This document shows, piece by piece, positions 30,223 through 64,000 of a stretch of DNA of 64,000 bases. Location: positions 32,001 to 96,000 of the IMG/VR virus record IMGVR_UViG_3300045970_000591. One strand, 5' to 3'. The notes under the pieces are model-generated. The model was not told where the DNA came from. It made no database searches and saw only the letters and a program-made list of their open reading frames with translations. How positions within the stretch are numbered: position 1 is the stretch's first letter; every line of letters starts with the position of its first letter. Source of the stretch: a virus. The translations under genes and the position numbers were made by a program.

Positions 30223-32568
30223 ATGGTAATCAAAGTCAGCACACTGCTAAAAAGCACTACATCACTATCAGCTGATCCAGCACCCAAACTATTTGCGCCA
30301 TTAGACACAAATAACTTTGCTATTGCAAACGGTGTAAATCCTGTAACAATATCATCAAATAAATATCCAACAACACAAGGCAGTAACGGACAAGTTTTAA
30401 CGACAGACGGCACAGGCAACCTATCTTGGGGTGCAGGTGGCGGAAGTGGCTATAGTGGCTATAGCGGATTTAGAGGCTTATCTGGATATTCGGGATTAAA
30501 TGGTACCTCTGTTGCATTAAAAGGATCTGTTGCAAACTTTGCAGCACTGCCGTTGGTTGCTACCGCAGGTGATTTATGGGTTACATTGGATACAGGTCAC
30601 GGTTGGGTGTCGGACGGTGCAAACGGCTGGTCAGATGTGGGGCAGATTCAAGGACCAACTGGTATAACAGGCACAAGCGGATATTCAGGTACAAGTGGAT
30701 ATAGCGGTACTAATGGTGCATTTGGTTTCAGTGGATTCAGCGGTACGTCGGGTTATAGTGGCTTTAGCGGTACATCTGGTTTAGATGGAACAAGTGGCTA
30801 CAGCGGTGTAAGTGGTTACAGCGGCATTGACGGTGCAGTGGGCACAAGTGGCTACAGCGGGTGGTCAGGTATTAGCGGCGCAAGCGGTTATAGTGGTGTA
30901 AGTGGTTCAAATGGAACTAATGGAACATCCGGTGTAAGTGGATATAGCGGCATCAGTGGAACAAATGGCTACAGTGGCGCAACAGGAACAAGTGGCTATA
31001 GTGGCGCAACAGGAACAAGCGGTTTCAGTGGTTATAGTGGTGCCGGTGCGGTATTAGGCACAGACATTCAGCGTTGCGGTTTCTTAAATCAGACAGAAAC
31101 AACTATTGCCTTCGATGGTACTAATACATTTACGTTAGGTGATGCAGGATCTGGTTGGTCATATTACCTAAACGGTACAAAATACACTGTTTCGGGTGCT
31201 AAGACTGTCACTTTAAGTGCCACACCTCCCGCTGCAAAAGCAGTTTATTTTATTAGTATTTCAAATAACACAACAGGTACATTAAGTGTTTCGACTACTG
31301 CCTGGGATTTAACTGATCCACTCACAATACCTGTTGCAATAGTTAACTGGGATAATTCACTAACTCCTAAGTTTTGGTTAGCAGATGAGCGCCACTCAAC
31401 TAAGATTGATCGTAGGGTGCATTATTACCTACACTCAACACAAGGTACAAAAGTACAGACAAGTGGTGCTATAGCAGGATATACTGTTTCACCAGCAGTT
31501 CCTACTAATGTAAACAATACATTCTCTATAGGCGCAACAGTAATCGAAGACGAAGATATTATTCTAAGTCTTGCAGCATTAGCAGACCCGAACGGCACTG
31601 CAACAGATTATGTAAATCTATATAGAACAGCAGCATCAACCTATGCATGGGCAGTATCTGCATTACCATATCCGTCATCTGCTACATTTATTCAATATGA
31701 TAATGCTGGCACACTAACAACAGGCGTTACAGGTAGATTCTATAACTCATATCTATTATATACTGACTACGAAGGTGCAGGACGTTACTTAATGGTGCCC
31801 GGTAGAGCCCAGTTTACAACTTTAGCCCTTGCACAAGCAGAGAGCCCATCAACATTTGATTGGACAGGTATTGGCATCTCTGAGTTTGTAATAGCCTACC
31901 AATTCACATGGTTTACTGATGTTGCATATACAACAACAGGTAGGGCTAGATTAGCAGCGACACCAGTTAAAGTAAATATATCAACAGTAAGCGCAACTGC
32001 ATTGGTAACTGCACCACATAATACCTTAACTGGTTTACAAGGTGGTTTAGTTAGTGAGTATTTCCACTTAACTTCTGCAGAATACACCGCACTTCAACTA
32101 ACAGGTGGGTCAGGGTTCAGTGGATATAGTGGGATAAGTGGTTATAGCGGAGTGTCGGGATACAGCGGGGTCGGTACAAGTGGCTACTCGGGCACAAATG
32201 GATCACAAGGAACAAGTGGTTATAGTGGCATACCGGCAGCAAGAGCGCCGGTAACCATCGGCTACTCAACAACTATAACACCGAGTGCCACAGGCTCGTT
32301 TGCTATCTTTAGAATTGTTGCGACAGGAGATTTAACTATAAACATTCCTACCGGTGGCACAGACGGGGGTGAGATAGAAGTATGGGTTACGGCTTCTGGC
32401 GTGCCAATAAATCTAAGTTTCCAAGCAGGTATCATCGTCCCAACAACAAGTTCCTTTACATCACCCTACGCAATGGCTATTGGTAAGAAAGCAAAGATAT
32501 TGTTGCAGTATGATGCGGTATTAAACAGTGGCCAATGGGAACTAACATCATTTATATATGGATATTAA
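30223..32568 (+). CDS. Tail/head fibre protein with Gly-X-Ser (SGYSG) repeats
   Basis: GQVLTTDGTGNLSW fibre motif, three G-X-S blocks, and a ~330-aa domain duplicated in the 42687 gene. TAAATA at 30198-30203. Confidence 0.75.
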   Translation: MVIKVSTLLKSTTSLSADPAPKLFAPLDTNNFAIANGVNPVTISSNKYPTTQGSNGQVLTTDGTGNLSWGAGGGSGYSGYSGFRGLSGYSGLNGTSVALKGSVANFAALPLVATAGDLWVTLDTGHGWVSDGANGWSDVGQIQGPTGITGTSGYSGTSGYSGTNGAFGFSGFSGTSGYSGFSGTSGLDGTSGYSGVSGYSGIDGAVGTSGYSGWSGISGASGYSGVSGSNGTNGTSGVSGYSGISGTNGYSGATGTSGYSGATGTSGFSGYSGAGAVLGTDIQRCGFLNQTETTIAFDGTNTFTLGDAGSGWSYYLNGTKYTVSGAKTVTLSATPPAAKAVYFISISNNTTGTLSVSTTAWDLTDPLTIPVAIVNWDNSLTPKFWLADERHSTKIDRRVHYYLHSTQGTKVQTSGAIAGYTVSPAVPTNVNNTFSIGATVIEDEDIILSLAALADPNGTATDYVNLYRTAASTYAWAVSALPYPSSATFIQYDNAGTLTTGVTGRFYNSYLLYTDYEGAGRYLMVPGRAQFTTLALAQAESPSTFDWTGIGISEFVIAYQFTWFTDVAYTTTGRARLAATPVKVNISTVSATALVTAPHNTLTGLQGGLVSEYFHLTSAEYTALQLTGGSGFSGYSGISGYSGVSGYSGVGTSGYSGTNGSQGTSGYSGIPAARAPVTIGYSTTITPSATGSFAIFRIVATGDLTINIPTGGTDGGEIEVWVTASGVPINLSFQAGIIVPTTSSFTSPYAMAIGKKAKILLQYDAVLNSGQWELTSFIYGY
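30661..31041 (+). repeat. 9-nt-period coding repeat (AGTGGNNNN; Ser-Gly-X)
   Basis: Gly at every third residue, nearly always preceded by Ser. Boundaries approximate. Confidence 0.9.
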
Positions 32569-32570
32569 AT

Positions 32571-33146
32571 ATGACAATTCAGACACCTAATATTCCGAGA
32601 GTGGTTTTATGCACACAAGGCAGGTGTGGTTCTTCGATGATGATGCGTGTATTAGAGGCAGGCGGGCTGACAGTTGATCATTCCCCTGAGATTCCCGAGG
32701 CGATGATTATGTTTAGAAATCCGGGAGGTATGTATGAAAATCGTGTTGCTGTTTTGGATAAAATATTTCTCAACTCTTTTAAACTACCGAATGCAGGCCA
32801 CTTAATAAATGTACCCGATGACTATAGAAGGATTTATATTGGTAGGCCTCTGAGTAAGATTTTAGCATCTTGGAATGATGTGGCAACTCGTGGTGCAGAA
32901 CAAGGTCGGAATATGGCTGGGTGGGCTGACACTTCTTGTCAAATGGCTATTGATAGAAATGAAAAATGGACGAAACTTCTTTCCGTATCAACGGGGTTCC
33001 TTATCCTTGACTATGACACGGTAGTTGCAAATCCGGCAGCAATGGCGCGATCTGTTGCAGATCACATAAACACACCTATCTTTTCATTCAACGAAGCGAA
33101 TGCAATCGCAGTTGTTGATCGAAGTTTATATTTGGAGAGAATATAA
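32571..33146 (+). CDS. Sulfotransferase-fold protein
   Basis: TQGRCGSSMMM resembles the 5'-phosphosulfate-binding loop; IGRPLSKILASW the 3'-phosphate R-x7-S motif; L.LDYD.VV.NP the C-terminal motif. Start ATG 32571. Confidence 0.7.
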   Translation: MTIQTPNIPRVVLCTQGRCGSSMMMRVLEAGGLTVDHSPEIPEAMIMFRNPGGMYENRVAVLDKIFLNSFKLPNAGHLINVPDDYRRIYIGRPLSKILASWNDVATRGAEQGRNMAGWADTSCQMAIDRNEKWTKLLSVSTGFLILDYDTVVANPAAMARSVADHINTPIFSFNEANAIAVVDRSLYLERI

Positions 33147-34117: not shown

Positions 34118-34236
34118 TTGGTAAAGCAGGAGCAACGGGATGTGGTGGCGGTGGTGGTGGTGGATGCCTTACCGGCGGTGTAGGTGGATCTGGTGGCCGC
34201 GGTGGCAACGGTATAGCAATATTGACTTCTTGGTAA
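34114..34236 (+). CDS. 40-aa Gly-rich mini-ORF, probable remnant of a glycine-rich fibre domain
   Basis: MIGKAGATGCGGGGGGGCLTGGVGGSGGRGGNGIAILTSW; ATGA overlap with the upstream stop. Confidence 0.4.
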   Translation: MIGKAGATGCGGGGGGGCLTGGVGGSGGRGGNGIAILTSW

Positions 34237-34247
34237 TAAGGAAAAAT

Positions 34248-35592: not shown

Positions 35593-35593
35593 A

Positions 35594-38446: not shown

Positions 38447-38537
38447 CTTGTGTCCTCATTTTAACTATTTATCATAAAACTAATATGAAAGAAAATGTCA
38501 TCTATGATAAATATAGGTGTATTGAGGAATAATAAAA

Positions 38538-40697
38538 ATGTCACAAAAATATCCGCGAGTTGCCCCTGGTGTAACAATAATAATGGATGAGGCATCAAAT
38601 GGTGTATCATCAAGGCTGACCGCAGATCCGCTGCTAACTTTACCAGCAGATCCGGGCGTAAGTGGTTACAGCGGATTTAGTGGTTATAGTGGCGCCGATG
38701 GGATAACGGGTATAAGTGGTTATAGTGGCACAAATGGCACCAACGGTACAATAGGTGTAGATGGTGTGAGTGGCTATAGTGGTGTAAGTGGATATAGTGG
38801 CCTGCAAGGTTTGCAAGGCATAAGTGGGTATAGTGGATGGTCAGGCGCAAATGGTGCTGGGTCGGTTATGTCTGTAGGTATAAGTGGCTATAGTGGTATC
38901 ACTGCAGGTAATACTCCTATAACAACTTCAGGCATAATGACGGTTACATTAGATAATACCGCTGTTACTCCGGGATCATACACAAATACTAATCTCACAG
39001 TTGATGCACAAGGTAGAATAACTGCTGCTGCAGACGGAACAGGTGGTGGTATAGGATTAGATGCATATAACAGTTTAGGTATAGGCAGCGTCGGCACTTT
39101 AGCAACCTCAACCGGGTTGAATAATCTTGCTATCGGCATTGCCACGTTATGTAACAACACCACCGGCTGTAATAATACAGCAATAGGCTATGGTGCTCTT
39201 TGCACAAACATTACAGGAAAAGATAACCTCGCCCAAGGTTATCAAGCACTATATGCTAATACATACGGTAACGATAATGCTGCTATAGGTCATCGTGCGC
39301 TTTATTGCAACACAACAGGCATTAATAACACTGCAATCGGTAACAGAGCGCTTTATGGGAATTTCACAGGTATCAATAATATTGCCATAGGTGCAGATTC
39401 GCTGGTTTTATCCGCACCAGAATCGGGTTGCGCAACAGTAAATAATAATATAGCACAAGGTTACAGTAGTTTACGCAATCTCACCTCAGGTTCAAATAAC
39501 ATAGCGATAGGCCAGTGCGCAGGTGCAAGTGTATCGTACGGATCTGATAATACCATATTAGGCTCGTTGATAGCAGGAAACTGTGTTTGCACTGTGTTGA
39601 TTGGCGCCGGAACATGCGAGCGTATCAAGGTTGATAATACAGGCCTGTATATAAATGGCACAGCTTTTACTGGTGGTGCACCATCACTGACTGCCACGTA
39701 TAACAACTTAGGAATCGGTACAGGTGCCCTTGCCAATCCGGCGATATATGGCCGCAATAACTTTGCCGTGGGTATTGGCGCGCTCTGCAAAGATACAGGT
39801 GGTAACCATAACTTCGCCCAAGGATATCATGCACTACAAAACAATCTCTATGCGAGTAATAACTTCGCCCAAGGCTACAATGCGCTAGGCAGCAACACAT
39901 ATGGTAGCCATAACTTCGCCCAAGGCTATCGCGCACTATGTAAAAACATTAACGGTAGTAGTAATATAGCAATGGGATTCAATGCACTCACGAGCAACAC
40001 CGCCGCCTGTAATAACACCGCGATAGGAGCATATGCACTCTTTACTAATACCACCGGTAGTAATAACATTGCAATAGGATCTAATGTACTCCGGAGTAAT
40101 ATTGCCGGTATTAATAACATCGCCATGGGAGATCATGCGCTTTACGGTAATACTACTGGCAATAATAATATTGCTCAAGGATATCAGGCGCTCTTCAGCA
40201 ATACTACCGGTACCGATAATATAGGAATTGGTTGCTGTGCCGGATACAGTAATATAGGGGGGTCCAATAATACGTTCCTAGGATACAATGCCCAAGGGAG
40301 CACCTCTACTTCTTCTAACACCATAACACTAGGCAATGCATCAATCGCGACCATTCGTGCTCAAGTAACAACTATTACAGCACTATCTGACGCACGTGAT
40401 AAAACTGACATTGTCGATATTCCACTCGGCCTCGATTTTATCAATCAGATACGCCCAGTGAAGTTTACATGGAATATGCGTGATGGAAGTAAAGTAGGTC
40501 AAGGCTATGCTGGTTTCATTGCACAAGAACTAAAACAAGTAATGGATTATCATCAAGTCAAAGATTGGTTGGATCTCGTTCTTGAAGATAATCCCGATCG
40601 ATACGAAGCCGCACCGGGTAAACTACTGCCTATCATTGTTAAAGCGATCCAGGAACTAAATGCCAAGTTTGAAGCATATAAACTAACGCACCCATAA
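38538..40697 (+). CDS. Fibre/adhesin: G-X-S block, 17-aa NNxAxGxxALxxNTTG repeats, peptidase S74 intramolecular chaperone
   Basis: Repeats visible in the protein. C-terminal SDARDKTDI...RPVKFTW...GFIAQE...KAIQEL. TAAATA at 38509-38514. Confidence 0.8.
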   Translation: MSQKYPRVAPGVTIIMDEASNGVSSRLTADPLLTLPADPGVSGYSGFSGYSGADGITGISGYSGTNGTNGTIGVDGVSGYSGVSGYSGLQGLQGISGYSGWSGANGAGSVMSVGISGYSGITAGNTPITTSGIMTVTLDNTAVTPGSYTNTNLTVDAQGRITAAADGTGGGIGLDAYNSLGIGSVGTLATSTGLNNLAIGIATLCNNTTGCNNTAIGYGALCTNITGKDNLAQGYQALYANTYGNDNAAIGHRALYCNTTGINNTAIGNRALYGNFTGINNIAIGADSLVLSAPESGCATVNNNIAQGYSSLRNLTSGSNNIAIGQCAGASVSYGSDNTILGSLIAGNCVCTVLIGAGTCERIKVDNTGLYINGTAFTGGAPSLTATYNNLGIGTGALANPAIYGRNNFAVGIGALCKDTGGNHNFAQGYHALQNNLYASNNFAQGYNALGSNTYGSHNFAQGYRALCKNINGSSNIAMGFNALTSNTAACNNTAIGAYALFTNTTGSNNIAIGSNVLRSNIAGINNIAMGDHALYGNTTGNNNIAQGYQALFSNTTGTDNIGIGCCAGYSNIGGSNNTFLGYNAQGSTSTSSNTITLGNASIATIRAQVTTITALSDARDKTDIVDIPLGLDFINQIRPVKFTWNMRDGSKVGQGYAGFIAQELKQVMDYHQVKDWLDLVLEDNPDRYEAAPGKLLPIIVKAIQELNAKFEAYKLTHP

Positions 40698-52849: not shown

Positions 52850-54876
52850 CACAATACTTAGATAAGTTCTTAGGTGGTATGGGTGTAAGTGGATATAGCG
52901 GTATAAGCCCTACACTTACTGCCACATATAATAACTTTGCAATCGGCACAGGTGCATTGGCATCAAATACAACAGGTAATAACAATGTTGCGATAGGTAT
53001 AGGCGCATTATGTAAAAATACAATCGGTTATAATAACTTTGCAAGCGGGTACACGGCACTCGCGGCCAACACCACAGGTGCCAATAACACGGCTATAGGA
53101 TGCAAGGCACTCGCGGCCAACAATATAGGCAAGAATAACTTCGCCCAAGGCTACTATGCGCTCCTAAACAATACAATCGGCAGTTATAACTTTGCCCAGG
53201 GATCCTATGCGCTCTATGGCAACACCACCGGCAGTAATAACACGGCTATAGGGACCGGGGCACTATACTGCAACACCACTGGCATCAATAACATCGGTAT
53301 CGGTTGCCGTTCACTATTCAATTCAAACTCTACCGGCACCAACATAGGTATCGGCTACAATGCAGGTAGTTCTATCACAACTGGTGTTAACAACACCGTC
53401 ATAGGTTCTCTTGTAGCAGCCGCAGGCTGCGTCTGTACTTTACTACTTGGTGCAGGGACCTGCGAACGCATTCGAGTAGATAGCAGCGGTTTATATATTA
53501 ATAATGCAATATGGAACTGTGGTACACCAACGTTAACACCAACATACAATAATCTAAACATTGGCACGGGTGCATTGGCATCAGTTACAACCGGTAATAA
53601 TAACTTTGCAGTCGGTATAAATGCGTTATGTACGAATACAGTGGGTATTGCCAATATAGCAATAGGATGCGGTGCGTTAAAGTCTAATACATATGGTTTC
53701 TTTAATATTGCACTAGGGCCGTGTGCGTTATGTACCAACACCTCGGGCAGCTCTAACTTCGCTGCCGGATATGGTTCCCTTATATTCAATACCTCGGGGA
53801 AATCTAATGTTGCCATAGGGTGTCAGACACTATATTATAACTCAACCGGTTGTCATAATGTAGCCATAGGGTGTAGAGCACTATTTTCCGCCACCGGTGG
53901 TATAAACAATATTGCAATGGGCGAATACGCCCTCACCAATACAACTACCGGGCAAAATAACATTGCACTAGGATATTGGACACTACGGTGTAATACAACA
54001 GGCAGCTACAACTTTGCCTTCGGAACATATACTCTATATCAAAACACAACAGGATATGATAATTTTGCTGTAGGTTATAGAACTTTAACCAGTAATACAG
54101 GTGGCATGCACAATGTAGCATTAGGCCAGTGTGCTATGATTTGTAACACCACCGGATGTAATAACTTCGCTGCAGGGCCGAGTGCCAATCAATACGGGGT
54201 AACAGGATCAGATAATATTTCTATCGGTGCATGTGCCTCATATTATACTGCTGGTTCCTGTAATATTGCAGTAGGTGGAATGTCTCTGCGTAATAACTAT
54301 TATGGTTTAGGCAGTGTTGGTGTAGGGTACTGTGCATTATATGGAAGCAACTGTAGTTTTAACACAGCCATAGGGAATCTCGCCGGTTGGACAAATACAA
54401 CTGGTGTAAATAACTCATATATCGGCAATGGTGCTGTAGGACTCACAGCCACATCTGCCAATACTGTTACTTTAGGTAACAACAGTATCACAACCCTAAG
54501 AGCCCAGGTAACCACTATAACTGCACTATCTGATGCAAGAGATAAGAAAGACATCGTTGATATCCCTTTAGGACTCGACTTTATCAATCAAATCAGACCC
54601 GTGAAGTTTACATGGAATATGCGTGACGGGAGTAAAGTAGGCCAGGGATACGCAGGTTTCATCGCACAAGAACTGAAACAAGTAATGGACTATCACCAAG
54701 TCAAGGATTGGCTTGATTTAGTACTCGAAGACAATCCCGATCGATACGAAGCCGCACCAGGCAAACTACTGCCTATCATTGTTAAAGCAATCCAGGATTT
54801 GTCTAAAGCAAATGATAAGTTAAAGGCACAAGTTGCCGACAATACAGCTAAAATAGAAAAACTGCTTGCAGGTTAA
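52846..54876 (+). CDS. Fibre/adhesin with 17-aa Asn/Cys repeats and peptidase S74 chaperone
   Basis: Paralog of the 38538 and 59559 genes; shared LLGAGTCERIRVD..GLY.N linker and near-identical chaperone. Confidence 0.8.
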   Translation: MTQYLDKFLGGMGVSGYSGISPTLTATYNNFAIGTGALASNTTGNNNVAIGIGALCKNTIGYNNFASGYTALAANTTGANNTAIGCKALAANNIGKNNFAQGYYALLNNTIGSYNFAQGSYALYGNTTGSNNTAIGTGALYCNTTGINNIGIGCRSLFNSNSTGTNIGIGYNAGSSITTGVNNTVIGSLVAAAGCVCTLLLGAGTCERIRVDSSGLYINNAIWNCGTPTLTPTYNNLNIGTGALASVTTGNNNFAVGINALCTNTVGIANIAIGCGALKSNTYGFFNIALGPCALCTNTSGSSNFAAGYGSLIFNTSGKSNVAIGCQTLYYNSTGCHNVAIGCRALFSATGGINNIAMGEYALTNTTTGQNNIALGYWTLRCNTTGSYNFAFGTYTLYQNTTGYDNFAVGYRTLTSNTGGMHNVALGQCAMICNTTGCNNFAAGPSANQYGVTGSDNISIGACASYYTAGSCNIAVGGMSLRNNYYGLGSVGVGYCALYGSNCSFNTAIGNLAGWTNTTGVNNSYIGNGAVGLTATSANTVTLGNNSITTLRAQVTTITALSDARDKKDIVDIPLGLDFINQIRPVKFTWNMRDGSKVGQGYAGFIAQELKQVMDYHQVKDWLDLVLEDNPDRYEAAPGKLLPIIVKAIQDLSKANDKLKAQVADNTAKIEKLLAG

Positions 54877-54897
54877 GTATGTATATAAATACGTTGT

Positions 54898-57800
54898 ATG
54901 ACGTATTCTATCATTATCCCTACCTATAATCACTGTGAAGATTTCTTAAAACCGTGCTTAGAATCTATCTTTCGGTATACTGATTTATCTGATGTTGAGA
55001 TTATTATATCAGCAAATGGTTGTATAGACAACACAAAAGCATATGTAGACAGCCTACCATACAATGTTAAACTTGTCTGGTCTGATACCGCAACGGGCTA
55101 CACAAAAGCAACAAACGATGGCATAAAAGTTGCAACAGGTGATTACATTATTTTAATGAATAATGATGTTGTATTATTACCACAGGAAACAAATACCTGG
55201 TTGCATATGCTATGTAATCCTTTCATTGATGGGAAAGTTGGTATAACAGGGCCTATGAAGTTTAGTTGGGACTGTGGTGGAATACAATATGATGGTATGG
55301 CATTCTGGTTAGTTGCAATACGAAAAGAGGTATTTGCAAGCATAGGTATATTAGATGAAATATATTCTCCAGGGATGGGGGAGGATGGAGATTTTTGTAT
55401 AAGGGCGACAAGCTCAGGATATACATTAGTTAGCGTACCAAACGATGTAAAGACTGCATTCGGTGCCGGCCCTGGTCACGATGCCTTTCCGATCTACCAC
55501 GCCGGCAATGGTACATTTGCTGATGATGAAAGACTCAAGAATGATATCATAGAGAGAAATAATAAGATTTTGGCAAATAAATACGGCAAGAAGAAATACA
55601 GTATTGTTATCCCGACTTATAATCATTGCGACGATTTATTGAAACCGTGCATTGAATCTATTATTGAACACACCGATTTAGATAACACAGAGATTATTGT
55701 TGTGGCAAACGGGTGCGAAGATAATACACACATATATGTTAGTAGTTTGGGAGATTTAGCCAAACTTATATGGGTTGACGATGCAATAGGTTACACGAAA
55801 GCCACTAATATAGGTATACAAGCTGCACGCGGCGAGTATATAATACTGCTAAATAACGACACGATGTTTTTAAGTCAGGAAAAGAATACCTGGATAAGAT
55901 TATTAGAAGCACCGTTTATAAATCCTAAAATGGGTATTACCGGCGTATTAGAAAACTATGATCCGTATGCCGATGCAAAGTTTCTTGTATTCTTTTGTGT
56001 AATGATACCTAAAAAACTATTTAATGAGATAGGTATATTAGATGAGATTTTTAGTCCAGGGTACGGGGAAGATATTGATTTTTCGTTAAGAGCAGCAAAA
56101 GCAGGGTATTCTTACAAAAGTGTAGATTCGTTCATATATGTTAATGGAAATACGCATACAACATACCCTATTTGGCATAAAAATAATAAGACATTCGGTG
56201 AGATATCCGAATACAGCACAAAGATAGTAGTCAGAAACAGTGCTATATTGGCACAAAGATATGGAAAAAAGATGAAAAAATATAGTGTAGTTATTCCGAC
56301 ATATAATCATTGCGACGATTTATTAAAACCGTTGGTAGATAGTATTATTAAATATACCAACTTAGATAATATTGAGTTTATCATTGTTGCAAATGGTTGC
56401 ACAGATAATACAAAAGCATATGTTGAAAGTTTAGGTGCGCCATTTAAGTTGGTGTGGTCAACTGACGCAATAGGATATACAAAAGCAACCAACTTAGGTA
56501 TTAAGGAATGTAACTCAGAGTTTGTTATTTTATTAAATAATGATACCGAGTTATTAAGTCAAACAAAGAACGATTGGCTAAAGATATTAGGAGCGCCCTT
56601 TGCAGATGAAAAAGTAGGCATGGTTGGCCCGTTAGAAATGTTTGATAGATACTCAAACCATCATGTGCTTATATTTTTCTGTGTTATGATTCGTAAGAAA
56701 CTATTTGACGAGCTTGGTTTGTTAGATGAGATTTATTCACCGGGCGGCGGGGAAGACATTGACTTTACTATTCGCGCCCAAAAAGCGGGATGGAAGACAA
56801 TGCCTACCTCTATACCAACATATACAGCATCTGTAAAAACAAATGTAGGCGATTTTCCTATCTGGCATAAAGATAATCAAACGTTTAGGGATATCCCGGA
56901 ATATACAAAAAGCATTATTAAAGTAAATGGCTTACTAAACTGCAAAAGATACAATGATAATATTAAGCTAAATCTTGGAGCAGGCGGCATAGATTATGAC
57001 GGGTTCTTGTCAGTTGATATGTATGATAAGCGGTCTAACATTCCAATGGATATAACAAAGTTAGATTTCGATGATAATACCGTTGTAGAAATAATGGCAT
57101 CACATGTATTTGAACATTTGAATCCATATCACTCTGTGGCGATTTTGCAAGAATGGTTGCGTGTGTTGAAACCAGGCGGCAAGTTAGCAATGGAAATGCC
57201 CGATATTGAAGCACTATGCAAGAGTTTCTTAGCTGAAAAGGATTACTACAAGAAAATGGGTATTCTAAATGCAGTCTATGGAAGTGTAAATACAACTGAT
57301 GTAGGCGGTCCAGACGAGATAACAAGCCCGCATTTGTTCGGGTGGTGGCCAGAATCGTTGTTTAACCACTTACAGGCAGCGGGTTATATTGATATTACTT
57401 TTCACCCAGAGAAATGGCCGCACCCGTGTGATAACCTGCGCGTAGAAGCATATAAGCCATCGATTACGATTGATAAGGATAATCTAAAAGCACAGGAGCC
57501 AAATACATATCACGAAATATTTGAACAAAATACATATGGTGTAGAAACAGCAGAAGTGCGCGGTAAGACTGTTATTGACATTGGTGCCAATCTTGGAATG
57601 TTTTCGCTATCTTGCTTATCAAGAGGCGCAACAAAACTCATAGCAATCGAAGCGCAACCCACAGTATATAACTTAGGTATGCTTAATAATATTGCTCCTT
57701 ATCCTGCTATTATTCCGTTAAACTATGCTGCATCTGATGTAGATGGTGCTATAGTTCATATTCCTAACGCACACGTTGCATCAAGGGTAGGCGGCACCGA

Positions 57801-58134
57801 TGGTGATGCGGTAGAAACGATAACATTGGCAACGGTGTTAGATAGATATAATATTATTGGTGATGATTTAGTAATGAAGATTGATTGCGAAGGATCAGAG
57901 TTCAACATATTATTACCTGCACCAACAGAACTGCTTCGTAGATTTAATATAATCTATATGGAAGTGCATGCCAATACAAACGAAAACCCTGCATATCACG
58001 ATGTAAAACTTATAGAAAACAAAATGATTGCATCGGGATTTAATCTTGCTAAGAGATTTACATATTACTCATATAACGAGAAGGGTGAGTCATTCCATAT
58101 TGGCGTGTATGTTGAAAAATGGGTGCGCGTATGA
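54898..58134 (+). CDS. Five-domain protein: three GT2 glycosyltransferase domains, class I SAM methyltransferase, FkbM-type methyltransferase
   Basis: YSI(I/V)IPTYNHC(E/D)D.LKP occurs three times, each with LxNND and GEDxDF. Then LNLGAG...ASHVFEH...RVLKPGG. Then IDIGANLG...MKIDCEGSE. TAAATA at 54886-54891. Confidence 0.88.
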   Translation: MTYSIIIPTYNHCEDFLKPCLESIFRYTDLSDVEIIISANGCIDNTKAYVDSLPYNVKLVWSDTATGYTKATNDGIKVATGDYIILMNNDVVLLPQETNTWLHMLCNPFIDGKVGITGPMKFSWDCGGIQYDGMAFWLVAIRKEVFASIGILDEIYSPGMGEDGDFCIRATSSGYTLVSVPNDVKTAFGAGPGHDAFPIYHAGNGTFADDERLKNDIIERNNKILANKYGKKKYSIVIPTYNHCDDLLKPCIESIIEHTDLDNTEIIVVANGCEDNTHIYVSSLGDLAKLIWVDDAIGYTKATNIGIQAARGEYIILLNNDTMFLSQEKNTWIRLLEAPFINPKMGITGVLENYDPYADAKFLVFFCVMIPKKLFNEIGILDEIFSPGYGEDIDFSLRAAKAGYSYKSVDSFIYVNGNTHTTYPIWHKNNKTFGEISEYSTKIVVRNSAILAQRYGKKMKKYSVVIPTYNHCDDLLKPLVDSIIKYTNLDNIEFIIVANGCTDNTKAYVESLGAPFKLVWSTDAIGYTKATNLGIKECNSEFVILLNNDTELLSQTKNDWLKILGAPFADEKVGMVGPLEMFDRYSNHHVLIFFCVMIRKKLFDELGLLDEIYSPGGGEDIDFTIRAQKAGWKTMPTSIPTYTASVKTNVGDFPIWHKDNQTFRDIPEYTKSIIKVNGLLNCKRYNDNIKLNLGAGGIDYDGFLSVDMYDKRSNIPMDITKLDFDDNTVVEIMASHVFEHLNPYHSVAILQEWLRVLKPGGKLAMEMPDIEALCKSFLAEKDYYKKMGILNAVYGSVNTTDVGGPDEITSPHLFGWWPESLFNHLQAAGYIDITFHPEKWPHPCDNLRVEAYKPSITIDKDNLKAQEPNTYHEIFEQNTYGVETAEVRGKTVIDIGANLGMFSLSCLSRGATKLIAIEAQPTVYNLGMLNNIAPYPAIIPLNYAASDVDGAIVHIPNAHVASRVGGTDGDAVETITLATVLDRYNIIGDDLVMKIDCEGSEFNILLPAPTELLRRFNIIYMEVHANTNENPAYHDVKLIENKMIASGFNLAKRFTYYSYNEKGESFHIGVYVEKWVRV

Positions 58135-59093
58135 TTCTATGCAGCATATCTACAAAAGGTAGGTATCACACTACCTTACCATTAGCAATAATGGCAGTGA
58201 TAAATCAAACGAAAAAAGTTGATAAACTTGTTATATTTGACGATAATGATACGCCTGAAGATATGAGGCAGGTTCAAATATATCAGTATATGTTTGAGAT
58301 GATGAATCTTAAAGGTATTGCGTGGGAATGGGCATATGCATTAAAGAAAGGGCAACACTATAATCACCAAAAAGCAAACGAAATGGGGGTTGAATGGTGT
58401 TGGAGGGTAGATGACGATTGTGTGCCGGAGCCTAATGTATTAGAAACACTCTATTCCTATGTAAATAGTTCTGTAGGTGCAGTTGGTGGCGCAATACTAA
58501 CACCACCATATGCGCCTGTCGGTAATGCTACAGGTATGATGGAACACATAGATAAAGAACAAAGCATTCAGTGGAACCCTATAAAGGTAGCAAAAGAAGT
58601 TGATCATTTGCACTGCTCATTTTTGTATCGCGCAGGAATACAGGATTACAACTTAGCATTATCAAAAGTGGCATTTAGGGAAGAAACTTTATTCACTTAT
58701 GGATTAAAGAAGAAAGGATATGGCATTCTTGTTGTACCTAATGCAACAACATGGCATGTAAAGAATAAGTTTGGTGGCGTGCGTACCGAACAGGAATCTA
58801 TGTTTGCACACGACGATATGATTTTTAGAAATATTATGTCGTTTGATAAACAAACTATTGTTGTATTAGACAACGGAATGGGTGATCATATAATAGCTAA
58901 GAAAATATTACCATTATTAAAAGATCCTGTTGTATTTTCTTGCTACCCCGATATTGTGCCCGGTAGAAGTATTCAAGAAGCTAAAGACTTGTTTGGCGAT
59001 ATCGATCAGTGGAATATATACAAGAAAATGGATCAATGGAACTGGAAAGGTGAAGTTTTAGATGCATTTAAGAAAATGTATGGAGTAATATGA
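58131..59093 (+). CDS. GT2-like glycosyltransferase with a C-terminal GT9-like N-lobe fragment
   Basis: IFDD, RVDDD (DxD), FREET; C-terminal VLDNGMGDHII. Start ATG 58131 (ATGA overlap). Confidence 0.7.
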   Translation: MILCSISTKGRYHTTLPLAIMAVINQTKKVDKLVIFDDNDTPEDMRQVQIYQYMFEMMNLKGIAWEWAYALKKGQHYNHQKANEMGVEWCWRVDDDCVPEPNVLETLYSYVNSSVGAVGGAILTPPYAPVGNATGMMEHIDKEQSIQWNPIKVAKEVDHLHCSFLYRAGIQDYNLALSKVAFREETLFTYGLKKKGYGILVVPNATTWHVKNKFGGVRTEQESMFAHDDMIFRNIMSFDKQTIVVLDNGMGDHIIAKKILPLLKDPVVFSCYPDIVPGRSIQEAKDLFGDIDQWNIYKKMDQWNWKGEVLDAFKKMYGVI

Positions 59094-59524
59094 TTTTAAT
59101 ATTTCCTTATGCTAAACAGCTATTAAACGGGCAAGAAAACCCTAAGAACTATCCAATACAATGCTGGAAAGAACTATTAGCAATGATAGATGAGCCTGTT
59201 GTGCAGGTGGGTGTCGATGGTGAGGTGCAACTTGTGCCCGATTTTAGAAAAAACCTGTCTATGGCAGACTTAGCAAAGTTAGTTAAAGAATGCCGGACGT
59301 GGATATCTGTAGATTCCTTTGCACAGCACTTTTGTTGGGATTTAGATAAGCAGGGTATTGTTATTTTCAGCCAATCTGATCCAAACATATTTGGCCACAA
59401 AGAAAATAAAAACTTATTAAAAGATAGGAAGTATCTTAGACCAAATCAGTTTTGGCTCTGGACACAAACTGTATATGATATAAACGCATATGTTTCACCT
59501 TTAGAGATATACCAAGAACTATAG
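59090..59524 (+). CDS. GT9 (ADP-heptose transferase-like) C-terminal lobe, standalone
   Basis: KNYP...W.EL...VQVG...DFR..LS...LA..V..C...ISVDSF..H. Own GGAG SD. Confidence 0.7.
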   Translation: MILIFPYAKQLLNGQENPKNYPIQCWKELLAMIDEPVVQVGVDGEVQLVPDFRKNLSMADLAKLVKECRTWISVDSFAQHFCWDLDKQGIVIFSQSDPNIFGHKENKNLLKDRKYLRPNQFWLWTQTVYDINAYVSPLEIYQEL

Positions 59525-59558
59525 GTAAATACTTATTGACGAGTTCATAGGAGCGAAG

Positions 59559-61619
59559 ATGTCAATAAAAGTAAGCGGCAACACCATTTTGCCAGATTCT
59601 AATGGTAATGTAAGAGGTGAAGTTGCGATAGGGGTCGGCGTAGGATTGGCCACTAGTACAGGTACCAACAATCTTGCTATTGGTGTTGGTGCTTTGTGTA
59701 AGAATACCACCGGCATTAATAACTTCGCCCAAGGATACAAGGCGCTCGCCGCTAACACCACCGGCAATAATAACACCGCAATAGGATGCCTGGCGCTCAC
59801 CAATAACACCACCGGCTGCAATAACTTCGCCGTAGGATACGCGGCGCTACGCAACAACACCGGCGGTGTTAATAACACCGCAATAGGGTGCTGGGCGCTC
59901 TACTGCAACACCACTGGAAACAATAACACCGCGATAGGATGCCAAGCGCTCAAGAGCAATGCCAGAGGCAATAATAATTTCGCCCAAGGATACAATGCGC
60001 TCTACGCCAACACCACCGGCAGCAATAACTTCGCTCAAGGATACTGGGCGCTCTGGGGCAACACCACAGGCAGTAATAACTTCGCCTCAGGAGCCTATGC
60101 GCTATGTGTCAACACCGGCGGCGATAATAATACAGCTCAAGGTTATAAGGCGCTTTACAGCAATACCACAGGCGCTAATAATATCGCTATTGGTTGCTGT
60201 GCTCTTTATGCGTCAAATTCAACTGGTTCTAATATAGCAATAGGTGCATCGGCTGGATCGGCTCTAGCTACGGGTGTCAATAACACGATCATCGGAACGC
60301 TGCCTGCGGCCGCCGGGTGCGTATGTACGCTCCTCCTTGGTGCTGGTGCCTGTGAGCGGATAAGAGTAGATAATGGTGGTTTATATGTAAATAATGCCGG
60401 CCCTTATCCTACATCAGCCAATCCTTCGTTGACTGCTACCTACAACAACCTGGCTATTGGTACAGGTGCACTGGCGTCTAATACAACGGGTGCAAATAAC
60501 GTCGCAATTGGTATAGGCGCGTTGTGTAAAAATATTTATGGGAGTCACAACTTCGCCCAGGGATACAAGGCGCTCCAGAAAAATACCACCGGCTGTAACA
60601 ACTTCGCCCAAGGAAGCCAGGCGCTCACCGCTAACACCACCGGCTGTCATAACTTCGCCTCGGGCAACACGGCGCTCTTCAACAACACCACCGGCAGTAA
60701 TAACGTAGCAATAGGGTACAATGCGCTCAAAAATAACGCCGCCGGCAAGAATAACTTCGCCTCGGGATACGTGGCGCTCTACAACAACACCGGCGGCTGT
60801 AATAACTTCGCCCAAGGATACTTTGCACTCTACAATAACACCACCGGATGTAATAACTTCGCCCAGGGATACCGGGCGCTCTACGGCAACACCACCGGAT
60901 GTGATAACTTCGCCTCGGGATACGTGGCGCTCTTGTGCAACACCTACGGCTGTAACAATTTCGCCTCAGGCTGCATGGCGCTCTACAGAAACACCACCGG
61001 CAGTAATAACTTCGCCCAAGGATACCGGGCCCTCTTCGGCAACACCACCGGCAATAATAACACCGCAATAGGATGCTGGGCACTCTACGGCAACACCTAC
61101 GGCTGTAATAATATTGCTATTGGTCAATGTGCTGGATACGGAGTTAATGGTGGATCAAATAATATCCTTTTAGGTTGTAATGCTCAGCCGTTAGCCGCAG
61201 GCGACTCTAACACTATTACATTAGGTGACGCCAATATTACAGCTATACGCGCTCAAGTAACGTCTATTACTGCGTTATCTGATGCCCGTGATAAGAAAGA
61301 TATTGTTGATATTCCACTTGGACTTGACTTCATTAATCAAATCCGGCCAGTGAAGTTCACATGGAATATGCGAGATGGAAGCAAGGTAGGCCAAGGCTAC
61401 GCTGGCTTCATTGCCCAGGAACTCAAACAAGTAATGGATTATCATCAAGTCAAAGATTGGCTTGAACTTGTTATTAGTAATGAAGACGAGTCGCGTTATG
61501 AAGCCGCACCGGGCAAACTATTACCTATCATTGTCAAAGCAATCCAAGATTTGTCTAAAGCAAACGACTCATTAAAGGCTCGTGTAGCAGTGTTAGAAGA
61601 CATAAATAGAAGCACTTAA
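59559..61619 (+). CDS. Fibre/adhesin with regular 17-aa repeats and peptidase S74 chaperone
   Basis: Twenty regular 51-nt units; chaperone near-identical to those of the 38538 and 52846 genes. TAAATA at 59526-59531. Confidence 0.82.
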   Translation: MSIKVSGNTILPDSNGNVRGEVAIGVGVGLATSTGTNNLAIGVGALCKNTTGINNFAQGYKALAANTTGNNNTAIGCLALTNNTTGCNNFAVGYAALRNNTGGVNNTAIGCWALYCNTTGNNNTAIGCQALKSNARGNNNFAQGYNALYANTTGSNNFAQGYWALWGNTTGSNNFASGAYALCVNTGGDNNTAQGYKALYSNTTGANNIAIGCCALYASNSTGSNIAIGASAGSALATGVNNTIIGTLPAAAGCVCTLLLGAGACERIRVDNGGLYVNNAGPYPTSANPSLTATYNNLAIGTGALASNTTGANNVAIGIGALCKNIYGSHNFAQGYKALQKNTTGCNNFAQGSQALTANTTGCHNFASGNTALFNNTTGSNNVAIGYNALKNNAAGKNNFASGYVALYNNTGGCNNFAQGYFALYNNTTGCNNFAQGYRALYGNTTGCDNFASGYVALLCNTYGCNNFASGCMALYRNTTGSNNFAQGYRALFGNTTGNNNTAIGCWALYGNTYGCNNIAIGQCAGYGVNGGSNNILLGCNAQPLAAGDSNTITLGDANITAIRAQVTSITALSDARDKKDIVDIPLGLDFINQIRPVKFTWNMRDGSKVGQGYAGFIAQELKQVMDYHQVKDWLELVISNEDESRYEAAPGKLLPIIVKAIQDLSKANDSLKARVAVLEDINRST
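59718..60176 (+). repeat. Nine tandem 51-nt coding repeats
   Basis: Consensus AAT AAC TTC GCC CAA GGA TAC NNG GCG CTC NNN NNY AAC ACC ACC GGC NNY. Confidence 0.92.
60546..61106 (+). repeat. Eleven tandem 51-nt coding repeats
   Basis: Same consensus as 59718-60176; 561 nt = 11 x 51. Confidence 0.92.
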
Positions 61620-61629
61620 CACTTCTTAT

Positions 61630-62523
61630 ATGCAACCACGGGGCGGGACAGAGTTACTTTACAGTAACTTATTAAAATATTGCGGAACAGATTGGCAGAA
61701 AGATAAAAACCTTATTTTATCTTTCTGTAATCCTACCTTAATACATCCGACTAAAACTAATATAGTGTGGCAGCATCTTATGCACGATCAGGGTGCTATA
61801 GCAGGGATGTATCAACCAGAGTTTATAGATAGTGTTGATAAGTTTGTATATGTTAGCAACTGGCAGTTAGGCCAGTTTAGGAATAAGTTTAACATTGCTA
61901 ATGCAAATAACATAGTAATAAAGAATGCGATAGATCCTATCTCCTACAAGGAAAAGCCAAAGGGAAAACTAAGACTCATTTACACATCAATGCCAAATCG
62001 CGGATTAGATATTTTATTAGATGCATTTGCACTGGTAGATAGAGATGTTGAACTTAGCATTTACTCATCAAATATAATATATGGTAAAAGTTATAGTGAT
62101 GCGGTAGGTAATAGAGATAGCCTATTATTTGCTCGTGCGCGTTCTATGAAAAATGTGTTATACAAGGGGTTTGTATTGAATAAAGTTGTTAGATCGGCAT
62201 TGCAAGATGCACACATATTAGCATATCCAAGCACATATAAGGAAACAAGTTGTATAGCTGCTATAGAGGCAGGTGCGGCAGGATGCAGGATTGTAACAAC
62301 AGATTTAGGCGCATTACCAGAAACTTGCAACCAATACGCACATTATGTTAAACATACAGTAGATAGGCAAACCTTGGTAGAAAACTACGCTACGGCACTC
62401 ATTGAAAACATTGACAACTATTATGAAAACAGCTATACTTTAGAAAATCAATCAGCCTGGTTCAACAAACAGTATTCCTGGGAAAATCGTAGTAAAGAAT
62501 GGACTCAGTTTCTAAATGCATAA
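61630..62523 (+). CDS. GT-B (GT4-like) glycosyltransferase
   Basis: N-terminal GGTE; YTSMPNRGLD.LL; YPS.Y.ETSCI.AIEA (E-x7-E). Confidence 0.82.
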   Translation: MQPRGGTELLYSNLLKYCGTDWQKDKNLILSFCNPTLIHPTKTNIVWQHLMHDQGAIAGMYQPEFIDSVDKFVYVSNWQLGQFRNKFNIANANNIVIKNAIDPISYKEKPKGKLRLIYTSMPNRGLDILLDAFALVDRDVELSIYSSNIIYGKSYSDAVGNRDSLLFARARSMKNVLYKGFVLNKVVRSALQDAHILAYPSTYKETSCIAAIEAGAAGCRIVTTDLGALPETCNQYAHYVKHTVDRQTLVENYATALIENIDNYYENSYTLENQSAWFNKQYSWENRSKEWTQFLNA

Positions 62524-63160: not shown

Positions 63161-63840
63161 GAAAAGTTTTAATAGGTTCCCCTTCATATAACGGTCAGCT
63201 TGATGTTTGGTATGTGAATAGCTTGTGCAACACAATAAAAATGAGTAAAGAGCACGATGTAGAAATCATACCTATGTGGGTATCATTTGACGCATTGTTG
63301 CAACGAGCAAGAAACGATACTATTCAACTTGCATTAGAAACGGGGTGTGATGATATTATTTTTATTGACACAGATATAGAATGGCAACCCGAATGGTTTT
63401 TTAAGTTATTGGAGTATGATGTTGATGTTGTTGGTGGAACATATCCTAAGAAGGGCGATAAGGAAGAATATGTTATTAGGCAACTACAAAGAAAACCTGC
63501 CAATGCGGATGGGTTAATAGAAGTAGATGGATTAGGAACCGGGTTTGTTAGACTGTCTAACAAAGCTATGCAATATCTATGGGACACAAGTGCAAAATAC
63601 ATAGATCCAAAAGATAATAAAGAACGCAGGATGATTTTCGATGTTGTTGTGCAAAACGAAAGTTTAGTAAGCGAAGATATTCATATGTTTAATAAACTTG
63701 CAGCAGGCGGATTTAAAGTATATTTAGATCCTACAATGACTTGCAATCACACCGGACCAAAGAAGTTTACTGGTAGCTTTGAGAACTGGTATAACAAATC
63801 ACCTATTAAAAATATTATAAAACCTACCAGACAACTATGA
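63157..63840 (+). CDS. GT2-like glycosyltransferase
   Basis: ARN...FIDTD (DxD), VVGG.YP.K, G.GTGF, SED..F. Confidence 0.78.
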   Translation: MRKVLIGSPSYNGQLDVWYVNSLCNTIKMSKEHDVEIIPMWVSFDALLQRARNDTIQLALETGCDDIIFIDTDIEWQPEWFFKLLEYDVDVVGGTYPKKGDKEEYVIRQLQRKPANADGLIEVDGLGTGFVRLSNKAMQYLWDTSAKYIDPKDNKERRMIFDVVVQNESLVSEDIHMFNKLAAGGFKVYLDPTMTCNHTGPKKFTGSFENWYNKSPIKNIIKPTRQL

Positions 63841-64000
63841 TAATACCTATTATTAGCGAAGATAGATCTTGTAACGGATGCACCGCTTGTTGCGATGGAT
63901 GGGCAACCGGGATAGCTCATGGGCATAAGTTTTATCCGGGTAGAAAATGTCATTATGTATCTACAACAGGTTGCACCATATATGATCAGCGTCCTAAAGA
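63837..64000 (+). CDS. YkgJ-type cysteine-cluster protein (truncated by window end; not in ORF track)
   Basis: MIIPIISEDRSCNGCTACCDGWATGIAHGHKFYPGRKCHYVSTTGCTIYDQRPK: CxxCxxCC...C...GCxIYxxRP. Confidence 0.7.
   Translation, partial: MIIPIISEDRSCNGCTACCDGWATGIAHGHKFYPGRKCHYVSTTGCTIYDQRPK

Follow-up and report, generated by a model that had tools for sequence, protein, structure and literature searches.

Serine-type collagen-like fibres of phages adjoin a conserved glycosyltransferase cassette that may glycosylate them

The DNA described here, which we call the window, is a stretch of 64,000 nucleotides from IMG/VR virus record IMGVR_UViG_3300045970_000591 and covers bases 32001-96000 of a viral contig 123,382 bp in length. 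Its major capsid gene (27424-28596) is of the T4 type (Pfam Gp23, E 3e-94) and 76% identical to that of the Pseudomonas jumbo phage PA5oct. From position 30223 onwards there is a series of fibre genes with collagen-like (Gly-X-Ser)n tracts, interspersed with genes for glycosyltransferases and methyltransferases. Our subject is the link between such fibres and a conserved cassette of these enzymes. Positions are those of the window, enzymes are called win plus the first position of their gene, and loci used for comparison carry numbers beginning with L. The fibre genes are the following.

30223..32568, + strand: fibre A1, 781 amino acids (aa); Pfam Collagen 75 bits; tail-fibre PHROGs
38538..40697, + strand: fibre B1, 719 aa; tract at aa 40-108, NNxAxG-type repeat body, C-terminal Peptidase_S74 chaperone domain
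42687..45785, + strand: fibre A2, 1032 aa; Pfam Collagen 159.5 bits
50759..52849, + strand: fibre C, 696 aa; tracts at aa 214-333 and 445-549, C-terminal Peptidase_S74 chaperone
52846..54876, + strand: fibre B2, 676 aa; paralogue of 38538, S74 at its end
59559..61619, + strand: fibre B3, 686 aa; paralogue of 38538 and 52846 with no Gly-X-Ser tract, S74 at its end, within the enzyme island

A tract was counted wherever a translated gene held a run of (G-x-x)n with n of at least 5. Four of the fibre genes together hold 287 Gly-X-Y triplets, with Ser at the Y position in 239/287 and Pro at 7 of 861 residues, which agrees with a preliminary description of this DNA, made from its letters, that had placed Gly-X-Ser tracts in the genes at 30223, 38538, 42687 and 50759 and a vestige in 52846. 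The main X residues are also those given there (Tyr, Thr, Phe, Val and Ile), with Tyr the commonest, and the longest uninterrupted run of Gly at every third residue is 53 triplets. In fibre A1 the tracts (aa 70-96, 144-275, 628-651 and 654-671) flank a 350-aa globular domain (aa 277-626) over which A1 and A2 are 79% identical, and the four tracts of A2 (aa 64-186, 539-562, 565-723 and 818-877) amount to 122 triplets with Ser at Y in 112. The three B-type paralogues have a common repeat body and S74 chaperone (50-56% identity) and range from a full tract in 38538 through a remnant in 52846 (MGVSGYSGIS, aa 11-20 only) to none in 59559. Fibre C is without a close paralogue among the window fibres.

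The window fibre proteins fall in tail-fibre PHROG families, and their tracts score as triple-helix repeats with Pfam Collagen (PF01391; 34.5-159.5 bits against a cut-off of 27.2). Window tracts lack the proline- and hydroxyproline-rich X and Y positions seen in animal and most bacterial collagens. Tract serines at Y are encoded by AGY as well as TCN codons, and the use of both codon families argues for selection on serine itself rather than copying of a DNA repeat. That the repeats form a polyglycine-II bundle, an alternative raised in the preliminary description, is less attractive, as the bulky Tyr, Phe or Trp at X and the S74 trimerisation domains count against it.

Fibre B3 lies within an island of enzyme genes that continues past the end of the window. 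The glycosyltransferase (GT) families, S-adenosylmethionine (SAM) methyltransferases and other open reading frames (ORFs) of this island include the following.

54898..58134, + strand: win54898, a 1078-aa enzyme with three GT2 domains, a Methyltransf_11 (class-I SAM) domain and an FkbM methyltransferase domain
58119..59093, + strand: win58119, core enzyme 1, 324 aa, GT2
59090..59524, + strand: win59090, core enzyme 2, 144 aa, C-terminal half of a GT9
61630..62523, + strand: GT4 (GT-B, Glycos_transf_1), syntenic in L009 and L010
62516..63160, + strand: class-I SAM methyltransferase, weak (PF13489, E 1.7e-4, below cut-off), with 60-63% identical homologues in L009 and L010
63157..63840, + strand: 227-aa ORF, possibly GT2-like (PF00535, E 0.012, below threshold), with 73-77% identical homologues in L009 and L010
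63837..64000 and past the window end, + strand: 154-aa CxxCxxCC (YkgJ-like) ORF with the motif at aa 12
64298-65092 on the window scale (L001:1298-2092): Sulfotransfer_3 enzyme 1
68392-69273 on the window scale (L001:5392-6273): Sulfotransfer_3 enzyme 2

From 47197 to about 69927 (window scale) the fibre and enzyme genes form one co-directional array, in which neighbours either lie 7 to 34 nt apart or overlap at stop and start. The part of the island beyond the window (64298-69273, about 6 kb) encodes a sulfotransferase, an FkbM methyltransferase, a full-length GT9 (win65770), a NodU-like carbamoyltransferase (Carbam_trans_C, E 4.5e-59) and the second sulfotransferase. No membrane segments were found in the island enzymes, and the window and island ORFs include no initiating phosphoglycosyltransferase, flippase or ABC exporter, or polymerase. 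This inventory matches the earlier one for the GT4-like domain, for the split GT9-like domain (59090-59524, the C-terminal GT9 half) and for the YkgJ protein. Elsewhere it is narrower: four of the five GT2-like domains then proposed stand, three in win54898 and one in win58119, while the fifth (63157-63840) falls below the cut-off, and of three methyltransferase domains the Methyltransf_11 and FkbM domains of win54898 are sound and the third (62516-63160) is weak.

Across the loci compared, the conserved core is a GT2 and/or methyltransferase gene, then win58119, then win59090, and we refer to this core as the cassette. By the same comparison, win54898 is an expanded form of the single GT2-methyltransferase protein of minimal cassettes. 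The GT4, the sulfotransferases and the carbamoyltransferase are kept in close relatives only (L009 and L010), in both of which a homologue of fibre C lies immediately upstream of the cassette.

To set fibre type against cassette, IMG/VR was scanned from the fibre side with a degenerate DNA pattern that covers G-[YF]-S/T-type repeats only. The scan gave at least 120 loci, and the counts that follow hold among the matches listed. At least 65 of these loci carry (G-X-S)n repeats and at least 55 carry Thr-type or other non-Ser repeats, mostly (G-Y/F/P-T)n, which provide a built-in control. With homologues called by tblastn at E<=1e-10, win58119 is represented in 36/65 Ser loci versus 1/55 non-Ser loci, and that one locus (L032) itself bears a 10-triplet Ser tract. 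The cassette shares the fibre's strand in 36/36 loci, lies downstream of the fibre in 29/36, and is separated from it by 0-9 kb (fibre to win58119 homologue; median about 1.5 kb). Searches of whole records added 11 Ser contigs and no Thr contig, for a contig-level total of 47/63 Ser versus 0/50 non-Ser (nominal Fisher p 2.7e-18). This is the co-occurrence that the preliminary description had suggested looking for across jumbo phage genomes, and it is specific to serine. The cassette-negative records include two giant-virus bins and several Thr-type genomes that are complete.

The pairing extends well beyond the relatives of this phage. Enzymes only 35-44% identical to those of the window still sit beside Gly-X-Ser genes (L019, L026, L038, L069, L103, L119, L124, L160 and L162), and the carriers include the T4-core jumbo phage described here, T4-like contigs with gp15 and neck genes, CheckV-complete genomes of 38-57 kb and a 310-kb contig. 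Natural controls point the same way. Thr-type fibres that share non-repeat domains with the window fibres have no cassette (L056, L063, L075, L084 and L134), and neither does G095 (94 kb, CheckV-complete), which shares a fibre domain with 30223 at 55% identity but carries Pro-containing collagen repeats. Three relatives of the 30223 core domain (L005-L007) likewise have collagen repeats of the ordinary kind, with Pro, and lack a cassette within 10 kb. One of these, L007/G094 (222 kb), had been considered as a close-relative control and was set aside; it has no cassette and no gp23 match, so it is probably incomplete.

A search from the enzyme side gave a concordant picture. Homologues of win54898 (42-66% identical) were found at 13 IMG/VR loci, with a win58119 homologue at 13/13 and a win59090 homologue at 12/13, the exception being L019. 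Huge Gly-X-Ser ORFs adjoin the enzymes in L009, L010 and L019; that of L019, where the enzyme is 42% identical, exceeds 1364 aa and has Ser at Y in 407 triplets. The 150 genes within 5 kb of win58119 homologues comprise 34 GT2, about 31 class-I methyltransferases and 12 FkbM, and the remaining cassette neighbours are unrelated phage genes (holin, endolysin, ribonucleotide reductase, gp15 and neck). These 150 neighbours match 52 families, and no flippase, polymerase or initiating phosphoglycosyltransferase is among the 25 most frequent.

Two other kinds of repeat came to light in these searches. Eleven giant-virus bins of IMG/VR (GVMAG; L022, L025, L042, L046, L057, L061, L085, L088, L094, L106 and L127) hold long (Gly-Tyr/Phe-Thr)n repeats and no win58119 cassette. 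At L133:8232-11026 there is a collagen-like repeat with Cys at Y (G-Y/F-C-G-P-Q/T/S...), adjoining a large ORF whose GT4-like domain is 28% identical to win61630.

The win58119 family is large and anonymous, with 2416 metagenomic homologues, none informatively named, and no PHROG family. In 185,579 species genomes it has 11 matches, all on metagenome-assembled genome (MAG) contigs of incoherent taxonomy; 10 of these have an adjacent win59090 homologue and three have adjoining Gly-X-Ser tracts. By its distribution the family thus seems essentially restricted to phages. Compared with cultured phages, the island has no nucleotide match, and protein searches with win54898 and the fibre core domain returned remote or uninformative matches only.

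Among cultured phages, a win58119 homologue was found only in Methylophilaceae phage P19250A (L141, KX815270.1; 38.7 kb), a siphovirus of a freshwater LD28 methylotroph. Its gp23 (locus 4750-8355; 1201 aa), labelled 'tail length tape-measure protein' in GenBank, is in fact a Gly-X-Ser collagen-like fibre with Ser at Y in 225/281 triplets. It is followed by a SAM methyltransferase (gp24), a protein 61% identical to win58119 (gp25) and a win59090 homologue (gp26), all three annotated as hypothetical, and gp23-gp26 come directly after the host-specificity and tail-fibre genes. Judged from its gene content, P19250A carries the minimal cassette in a tractable system. Its gp21 (1405-4182), a 'PE family protein' in GenBank, is a Gly-rich fibre-like protein. 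No paper on the pairing of a Gly-X-Ser fibre with a glycosyltransferase cassette was found in the literature searched.

Family alignments of the two core proteins (28 win58119 sequences with 38-70% identity, and 29 win59090 sequences) define their conserved parts. The first 245 aa of win58119 are a GT-A domain with invariant D98-D99-D100, E188-E189 and H213, and aa 246-324 form a Rossmann-like piece of about 80 aa with an invariant G253-x-G255-D256. A PF00535 score of 25.9 bits against a cut-off of 23.3 and an intact DxD place the protein in GT2/GT-A, and its profile has no match among PDB sequences at E<=1. The AlphaFold2 model has a predicted local distance difference test score (pLDDT) of 92, and GT-A structures match it at Z 17-18 with a root-mean-square deviation of 2.9-4.4 Å over 200-250 aligned residues. 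Foldseek and VIA-align return tied, generic GT-A matches only (AvpGT, PcManGT, ppGalNAc-Ts, RmlT, TarP and SpsA); the ppGalNAc-Ts alone align over residues 1-323, which is not discriminating at tied Z.

The start of the win59090 gene overlaps the end of win58119 by 4 nt. Its product corresponds to the nucleotide-sugar (donor) binding C-terminal half of a heptosyltransferase-like GT-B of family GT9 (PF01075, 24.8 bits against 22), and the N-terminal acceptor domain of about 170 aa that GT9 enzymes carry on the same polypeptide is missing. Its profile matches WaaC residues 180-294 (E 0.002), and in the alignment the invariant K19, D75 and H80 of win59090 correspond to K192, D261 and H266 of the WaaC donor site. 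For the model (pLDDT 96) Foldseek ranks WaaC first (E 4.9e-5, TMq 0.60), then TibC (6.6e-4) and WaaF (7.1e-4), and the protein also aligns to the C-terminal half of the full GT9 win65770 (E 1.4e-6), for which a PDB sequence search gave nothing useful. Because catalytic-type residues are invariant across these 28-29 sequences, both core enzymes look active.

Structure prediction suggests that the two proteins join. The predicted complex reaches an ipSAE of 0.82 versus 0.00 for the best control, the mark applied being one that 58/80 solved complexes and 2/110 mismatched pairs attain; runs agree in at least 87% of contacts, and the pLDDT of the partners is at least 92. In the predicted interface, the GxGD loop (253-259) and last helices (301-313) of win58119 meet residues 77-84 and 97-103 of win59090, with the loop touching H80. 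The docking pass may reflect likeness, as single-chain GT9 structures have been solved. From the model we infer that the win58119 tail and win59090 make up a split GT-B, with a GT-A attached to its catalytic and acceptor half.

The division into two genes is kept in all loci seen, and win58119 homologues always end where the win59090 homologue begins. Win58119 homologues frequently carry a methyltransferase or GT2 domain as an N-terminal fusion, and the N-terminal extensions examined are all of these kinds, with no fusion to a Gly-X-Ser tract. The 1793-aa polypeptide at L032:214-5595 (+) has several GT2 domains and a win58119-like domain, and the win59090 homologue there is still a separate gene downstream.

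Since Ser-type but not Thr-type fibres adjoin the conserved cassette, these phages most likely glycosylate their own fibres. We put at roughly 70% the probability that serines of the phage's collagen-like fibres are O-glycosylated in the cytoplasm, with win58119 and win59090 as the core enzymes, GT2 domains extending the glycan and methyltransferases capping it. The preliminary description had proposed that the phage's glycosyltransferases act on Gly-X-Ser fibres; the Ser-specific co-occurrence supports this for the GT2/methyltransferase protein, win58119 and win59090, the only ones tied to the repeats.

In such a pathway, win58119 and win59090 would come together as a single bifunctional enzyme, in which the tail of win58119 provides the split GT-B with its catalytic and acceptor half. 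The fibres would trimerise, aided in two of them (38538 and 50759) by the C-terminal S74 chaperone, and their (Gly-X-Ser)n tracts would wind into a triple helix of the collagen type, on which every triplet of each chain exposes a Ser hydroxyl. Tract serines would then receive their first sugar or sugars from the core enzyme, GT2 domains would lengthen the glycan, and methyltransferases would cap it. The set in this jumbo phage is enlarged, with three GT2 domains, two methyltransferase domains, a GT4, a full GT9, an FkbM, two TPST-like sulfotransferases and a NodU-like carbamoyltransferase, and so would be expected to yield a longer glycan that is methylated, sulfated and carbamoylated. The donor sugar may in some cases be of phage origin: beside the cassette, in divergent orientation, L012 (1307-1801, -) and L014 (8581-9884, -) have a cytidylyltransferase-fold nucleotidyltransferase, L014 together with an RmlD-like short-chain dehydrogenase/reductase, which hints that some phages make their own nucleotide-sugar donor. 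A lead towards ADP-heptose held up only in part: TIGR02199 matched 3/33 records, all below the cut-off, and 10/14 control genomes in the same search.

What the phage would gain is speculative: the glycan might stabilise and hydrate a triple helix that lacks proline, protect it from proteases or mask the surface. In the fullest version of this idea the fibre is a bottle-brush, with hundreds of Ser per chain bearing short methyl-capped glycans (here also sulfated and carbamoylated) and the glycan holding the proline-free helix together, a picture that we regard as improbable.

The sulfotransferases allow a further possibility. The only solved sequence relatives of the first one beyond the window are the protein-tyrosine sulfotransferases TPST1/2 (E 4e-5, about 200 residues), and because Tyr is the commonest X residue it is conceivable that Tyr is sulfated directly; the two enzymes may O-sulfate the tyrosines of the Gly-Tyr-Ser repeats themselves. 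L009, however, keeps this sulfotransferase (79% identical) though its neighbouring fibre has few Tyr, which makes sulfation of the glycan at least as likely. A virion structure with sulfated Tyr or a sulfated glycan would, if real, be the first in a bacteriophage.

Several points weigh against fibre glycosylation. What the data establish is the layout of the genes, the chemistry of the repeats, the folds and motifs of the enzymes and the Ser-specific co-occurrence; the acceptor, the sugars and the benefit we infer, from comparative genomics only. The p-values are nominal and overstate the evidence, since the contigs are not independent of one another in phylogeny, and a shared host range (the samples are mostly from freshwater or groundwater) could confound the contrast between Ser and Thr. 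Sixteen of the Ser-type contigs among the matches listed lack the cassette, all of them fragments 4-58% complete, and L011, L016 and L017 have the cassette beside a ribonucleotide reductase and lack a Gly-X-Ser gene in the 10 kb around it. The most familiar GT9 enzymes are heptosyltransferases of lipopolysaccharide (LPS), and the generic fold of win58119, with its tied matches, does not reveal whether the acceptor is a protein or a glycan. As for the split GT-B, hhalign of the win58119 family against full GT9 detected no homology to the N-terminal half, and the assignment of the tail to that half draws on motif, fold and docking model. Some of these concerns are mitigated. The persistence of the pairing in divergent enzymes and in varied phage types, together with the Thr-type and G095 controls, reduces the problem of non-independence. 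L011, L016 and L017 are contigs 3-5% complete, and the related L018 has a Gly-X-Ser tract at the contig end.

The enzymes could instead modify a host surface glycan (LPS core, capsule or exopolysaccharide), with the effect of blocking superinfection or freeing progeny from debris, and sit beside fibres as an accessory insertion. Accessory genes are commonly found downstream of tail-fibre genes, win59090 and win65770 resemble the LPS heptosyltransferases WaaC, WaaF and RfaQ, the GT2 domains match exopolysaccharide and O-antigen enzymes (all far below cut-off), and a shared host group could give rise to a spurious contrast between Ser and Thr. We nevertheless regard this as unlikely. The link is Ser-specific and is missing from Thr-type fibres even where these have homologous non-repeat domains, and the cassette is on the fibre's strand at all 36 loci among the matches listed, often with overlapping stops and starts, which suggests late co-expression with structural genes. 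There are no membrane segments, and no flippase, polymerase or lipid-carrier transferase was found among the island ORFs or the most frequent neighbour families. Finally, where a canonical GT9 has its N-domain, the part of WaaC that binds Kdo2-lipid A, the phage enzyme has an 80-aa piece joined to a GT-A.

A cassette that glycosylates virion proteins generally (capsid, tail tube or the non-collagen parts of fibres), with Gly-X-Ser not the acceptor, is a less probable reading again. It has a precedent in the glycans on capsid and tail-tube C-termini of mycobacteriophages (Freeman et al. 2023, as summarised in PMC12619734), and a few contigs do have a cassette and no nearby Gly-X-Ser gene. Those contigs, however, are fragments 3-24% complete, and general modification would not explain why Ser-type fibres have the cassette and Thr-type fibres do not, or why the median distance is 1.5 kb (among the matches listed).

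We think it very improbable that the island makes a free or non-protein-linked oligosaccharide of the Nod-factor kind, or that the core proteins are non-catalytic factors of fibre assembly. The combination of a NodU-like carbamoyltransferase with sulfotransferases and methyltransferases does recall Nod-factor tailoring, but there is no NodC-like chain synthase above the cut-off, and the tailoring enzymes are kept in close relatives only while the Ser link concerns the glycosyltransferase core. Chaperones of fibres usually have their genes right after those of the fibres, but the invariant DxD and donor-site residues argue for catalysis. Modification of phage DNA, by T4-type glucosylation or a glycan hypermodification of bases, can be discounted: the sign of it in the island, a TAGT (TET-associated glycosyltransferase, PF20691) match in win54898 (E 0.003, 17.9 bits versus a cut-off of 27.5), is below the cut-off for a DNA glycosyltransferase and lies under a much stronger GT2 match, the genes are in the late structural array and not with replication genes, and sulfo- and carbamoyltransferases and a fibre-specific linkage in small siphophages do not fit. 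These alternatives to glycosylation of the fibre serines fail mainly because of the specificity for Ser over Thr, the operon-like coupling to fibres and the absence of membrane machinery.

Several other features of the locus stand near the fibre genes and the island.

30196..30203, + strand: GATAAATA, promoter-like motif upstream of fibre A1 (30223)
32535..33146, + strand: 203-aa ORF with a weak sulfotransferase-like C-terminus (PF13469, E 0.007, 17.1 bits against a cut-off of 27)
35785-37227, - strand: gp15 tail-sheath stabiliser
40755..41606, + strand: fusion of a P-loop kinase and a cytidylyltransferase-fold nucleotidyltransferase resembling nicotinamide mononucleotide adenylyltransferase (NMNAT), matches all far below cut-off
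45782..47175, + strand: two tandem paralogues with a concanavalin A (ConA)-like lectin fold (Laminin_G_3; E 2.9e-5 and 2.2e-23), 40% identical to each other
54884..54891, + strand: TATAAATA, T4-type late-promoter-like motif, 7 nt before the start of 54898

The GATAAATA motif also occurs at 38506, 41624, 42615 and 47174, upstream of 38538, 41651, 42687 and 47197, and with 11 matches versus 5.6 expected, almost all intergenic, it is modestly enriched. The TATAAATA motif is not enriched across the window (3 versus 10 expected), and so its single site before 54898 is only suggestive. An earlier proposal that the island is served by late promoters is thus supported in part. The same account had named a sulfotransferase and an adenosine phosphosulfate (APS) kinase fusion in the window. 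The former is the weak ORF at 32535-33146, below the cut-off, and two Sulfotransfer_3 enzymes lie beyond the window; the latter gives way to the kinase-nucleotidyltransferase fusion at 40755-41606 (+), which together with a NUDIX hydrolase (34858-35304, -) looks more like NAD or nucleotide salvage than sulfate activation. A 78% identical homologue of the fusion is found in L007, where the stretch examined has no cassette, and 27-30% identical homologues lie two genes upstream of the cassette in L016-L018.

The Laminin_G_3 pair directly follows fibre A2, the largest Gly-X-Ser fibre, and could be fibre-tip adhesins or glycan-binding partners. Also in the fibre array is a 947-aa ORF (47906-50749, +), a large structural candidate without a PHROG family and with a borderline Kelch motif (Pfam E 4.4e-4). 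A papain-family C1 cysteine peptidase (41651-42598, +; E 4e-14) and a YiiX/C92 permuted papain-like amidase (34140-34868, +; E 2e-8) lie among the fibre genes, and each may be a processing or lysis enzyme. Between the major capsid gene and the first fibre gene is a 500-aa HNH/homing-endonuclease gene (28671-30173, -; phrog_3339, E 7e-90).

To our knowledge, mycobacteriophages are so far the only phages whose virions have been demonstrated to be glycosylated post-translationally. Our results point to a second and far more widespread system, spanning 38-kb siphophages to jumbo phages, in which the novelty would lie in a defined Gly-X-Ser acceptor motif and an enzyme of unusual build, with a GT-A attached to a GT9 that is split in a conserved manner. 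If correct, glycosylation of the fibres would account for the stabilisation of proline-free collagen helices in phage fibres, for the near-invariant Ser at Y and for the role of a set of unannotated 'hypothetical' genes. A coat of glycan on the fibres would also bear on host recognition, on phage immunogenicity and on how well phages withstand proteases and the environment. The cultured phage P19250A makes the idea directly testable, and the specificity for Ser over Thr offers a handle for enzymology and for the engineering of glycosylated collagen-like materials.

The cassette can be set beside several known systems. WaaC and WaaF (GT9; PDB 2GT1, 2H1F and 1PSW) have in common with win59090 the fold and key residues of the donor-binding C-domain, and differ in that the phage enzyme is without the N-domain that binds lipid A-Kdo, is split into two genes in a conserved manner, and is linked to fibres rather than LPS genes. 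A functional likeness may be found in the bacterial autotransporter heptosyltransferase (BAHT) systems TibC/TibA and Aah/AIDA-I, in which a GT-B of heptosyltransferase type hyper-glycosylates serines of a repetitive surface adhesin in the cytoplasm and without lipid carriers (PMC4358343). TibC is also among the structural matches of win59090 (E 6.6e-4). Win59090 is nonetheless not a member of the BAHT family: it is closer to WaaC than to TibC, neither it nor win65770 matches TIGR04414 at E<=0.01, and its family conserves no four-Cys iron finger, with only one nearly invariant Cys; the phage enzyme is moreover split and bolted to a GT-A, and its probable acceptor is a collagen helix where theirs is a beta-helix.

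On the side of the acceptor, BclA of the Bacillus exosporium has a proline-poor collagen-like region with a hydroxy amino acid at Y that is O-glycosylated by enzymes encoded nearby. Its repeats are Gly-Pro-Thr or Gly-X-Thr, whereas phage Thr-type repeats are those without the cassette (0/50 among the matches listed), and its glycosyltransferases are unrelated. On the side of the enzymes, A064R of chlorovirus PBCV-1 is a GT-GT-methyltransferase that acts on the major capsid protein, and mimivirus glycosylates its fibrils; such viruses assemble capped glycans on structural proteins of their own and need no host machinery for it. The joining of glycosyltransferase and methyltransferase modules in one chain recalls the GT2-GT2-GT2-methyltransferase-FkbM order of win54898, but these are giant viruses that infect eukaryotes, with other acceptors and linkages, and the likeness is one of domain logic only.

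Among phages, the parallel is with mycobacteriophages, which carry glycans on capsid and tail-tube C-termini (Freeman et al. 2023, as summarised in PMC12619734). There, phage glycosyltransferases encoded among the structural genes decorate the phage's own virion proteins in the cytoplasm, and in the window, too, glycosyltransferase genes are embedded in a structural, late array. The two differ in their acceptors, which in mycobacteriophages are C-termini of capsid and tail tube shown by mass spectrometry, and here would be the (Gly-X-Ser)n stalk of a collagen-like fibre. They differ as well in enzyme families, the phage cassette described here combining a split GT9 with a GT-A and a methyltransferase.

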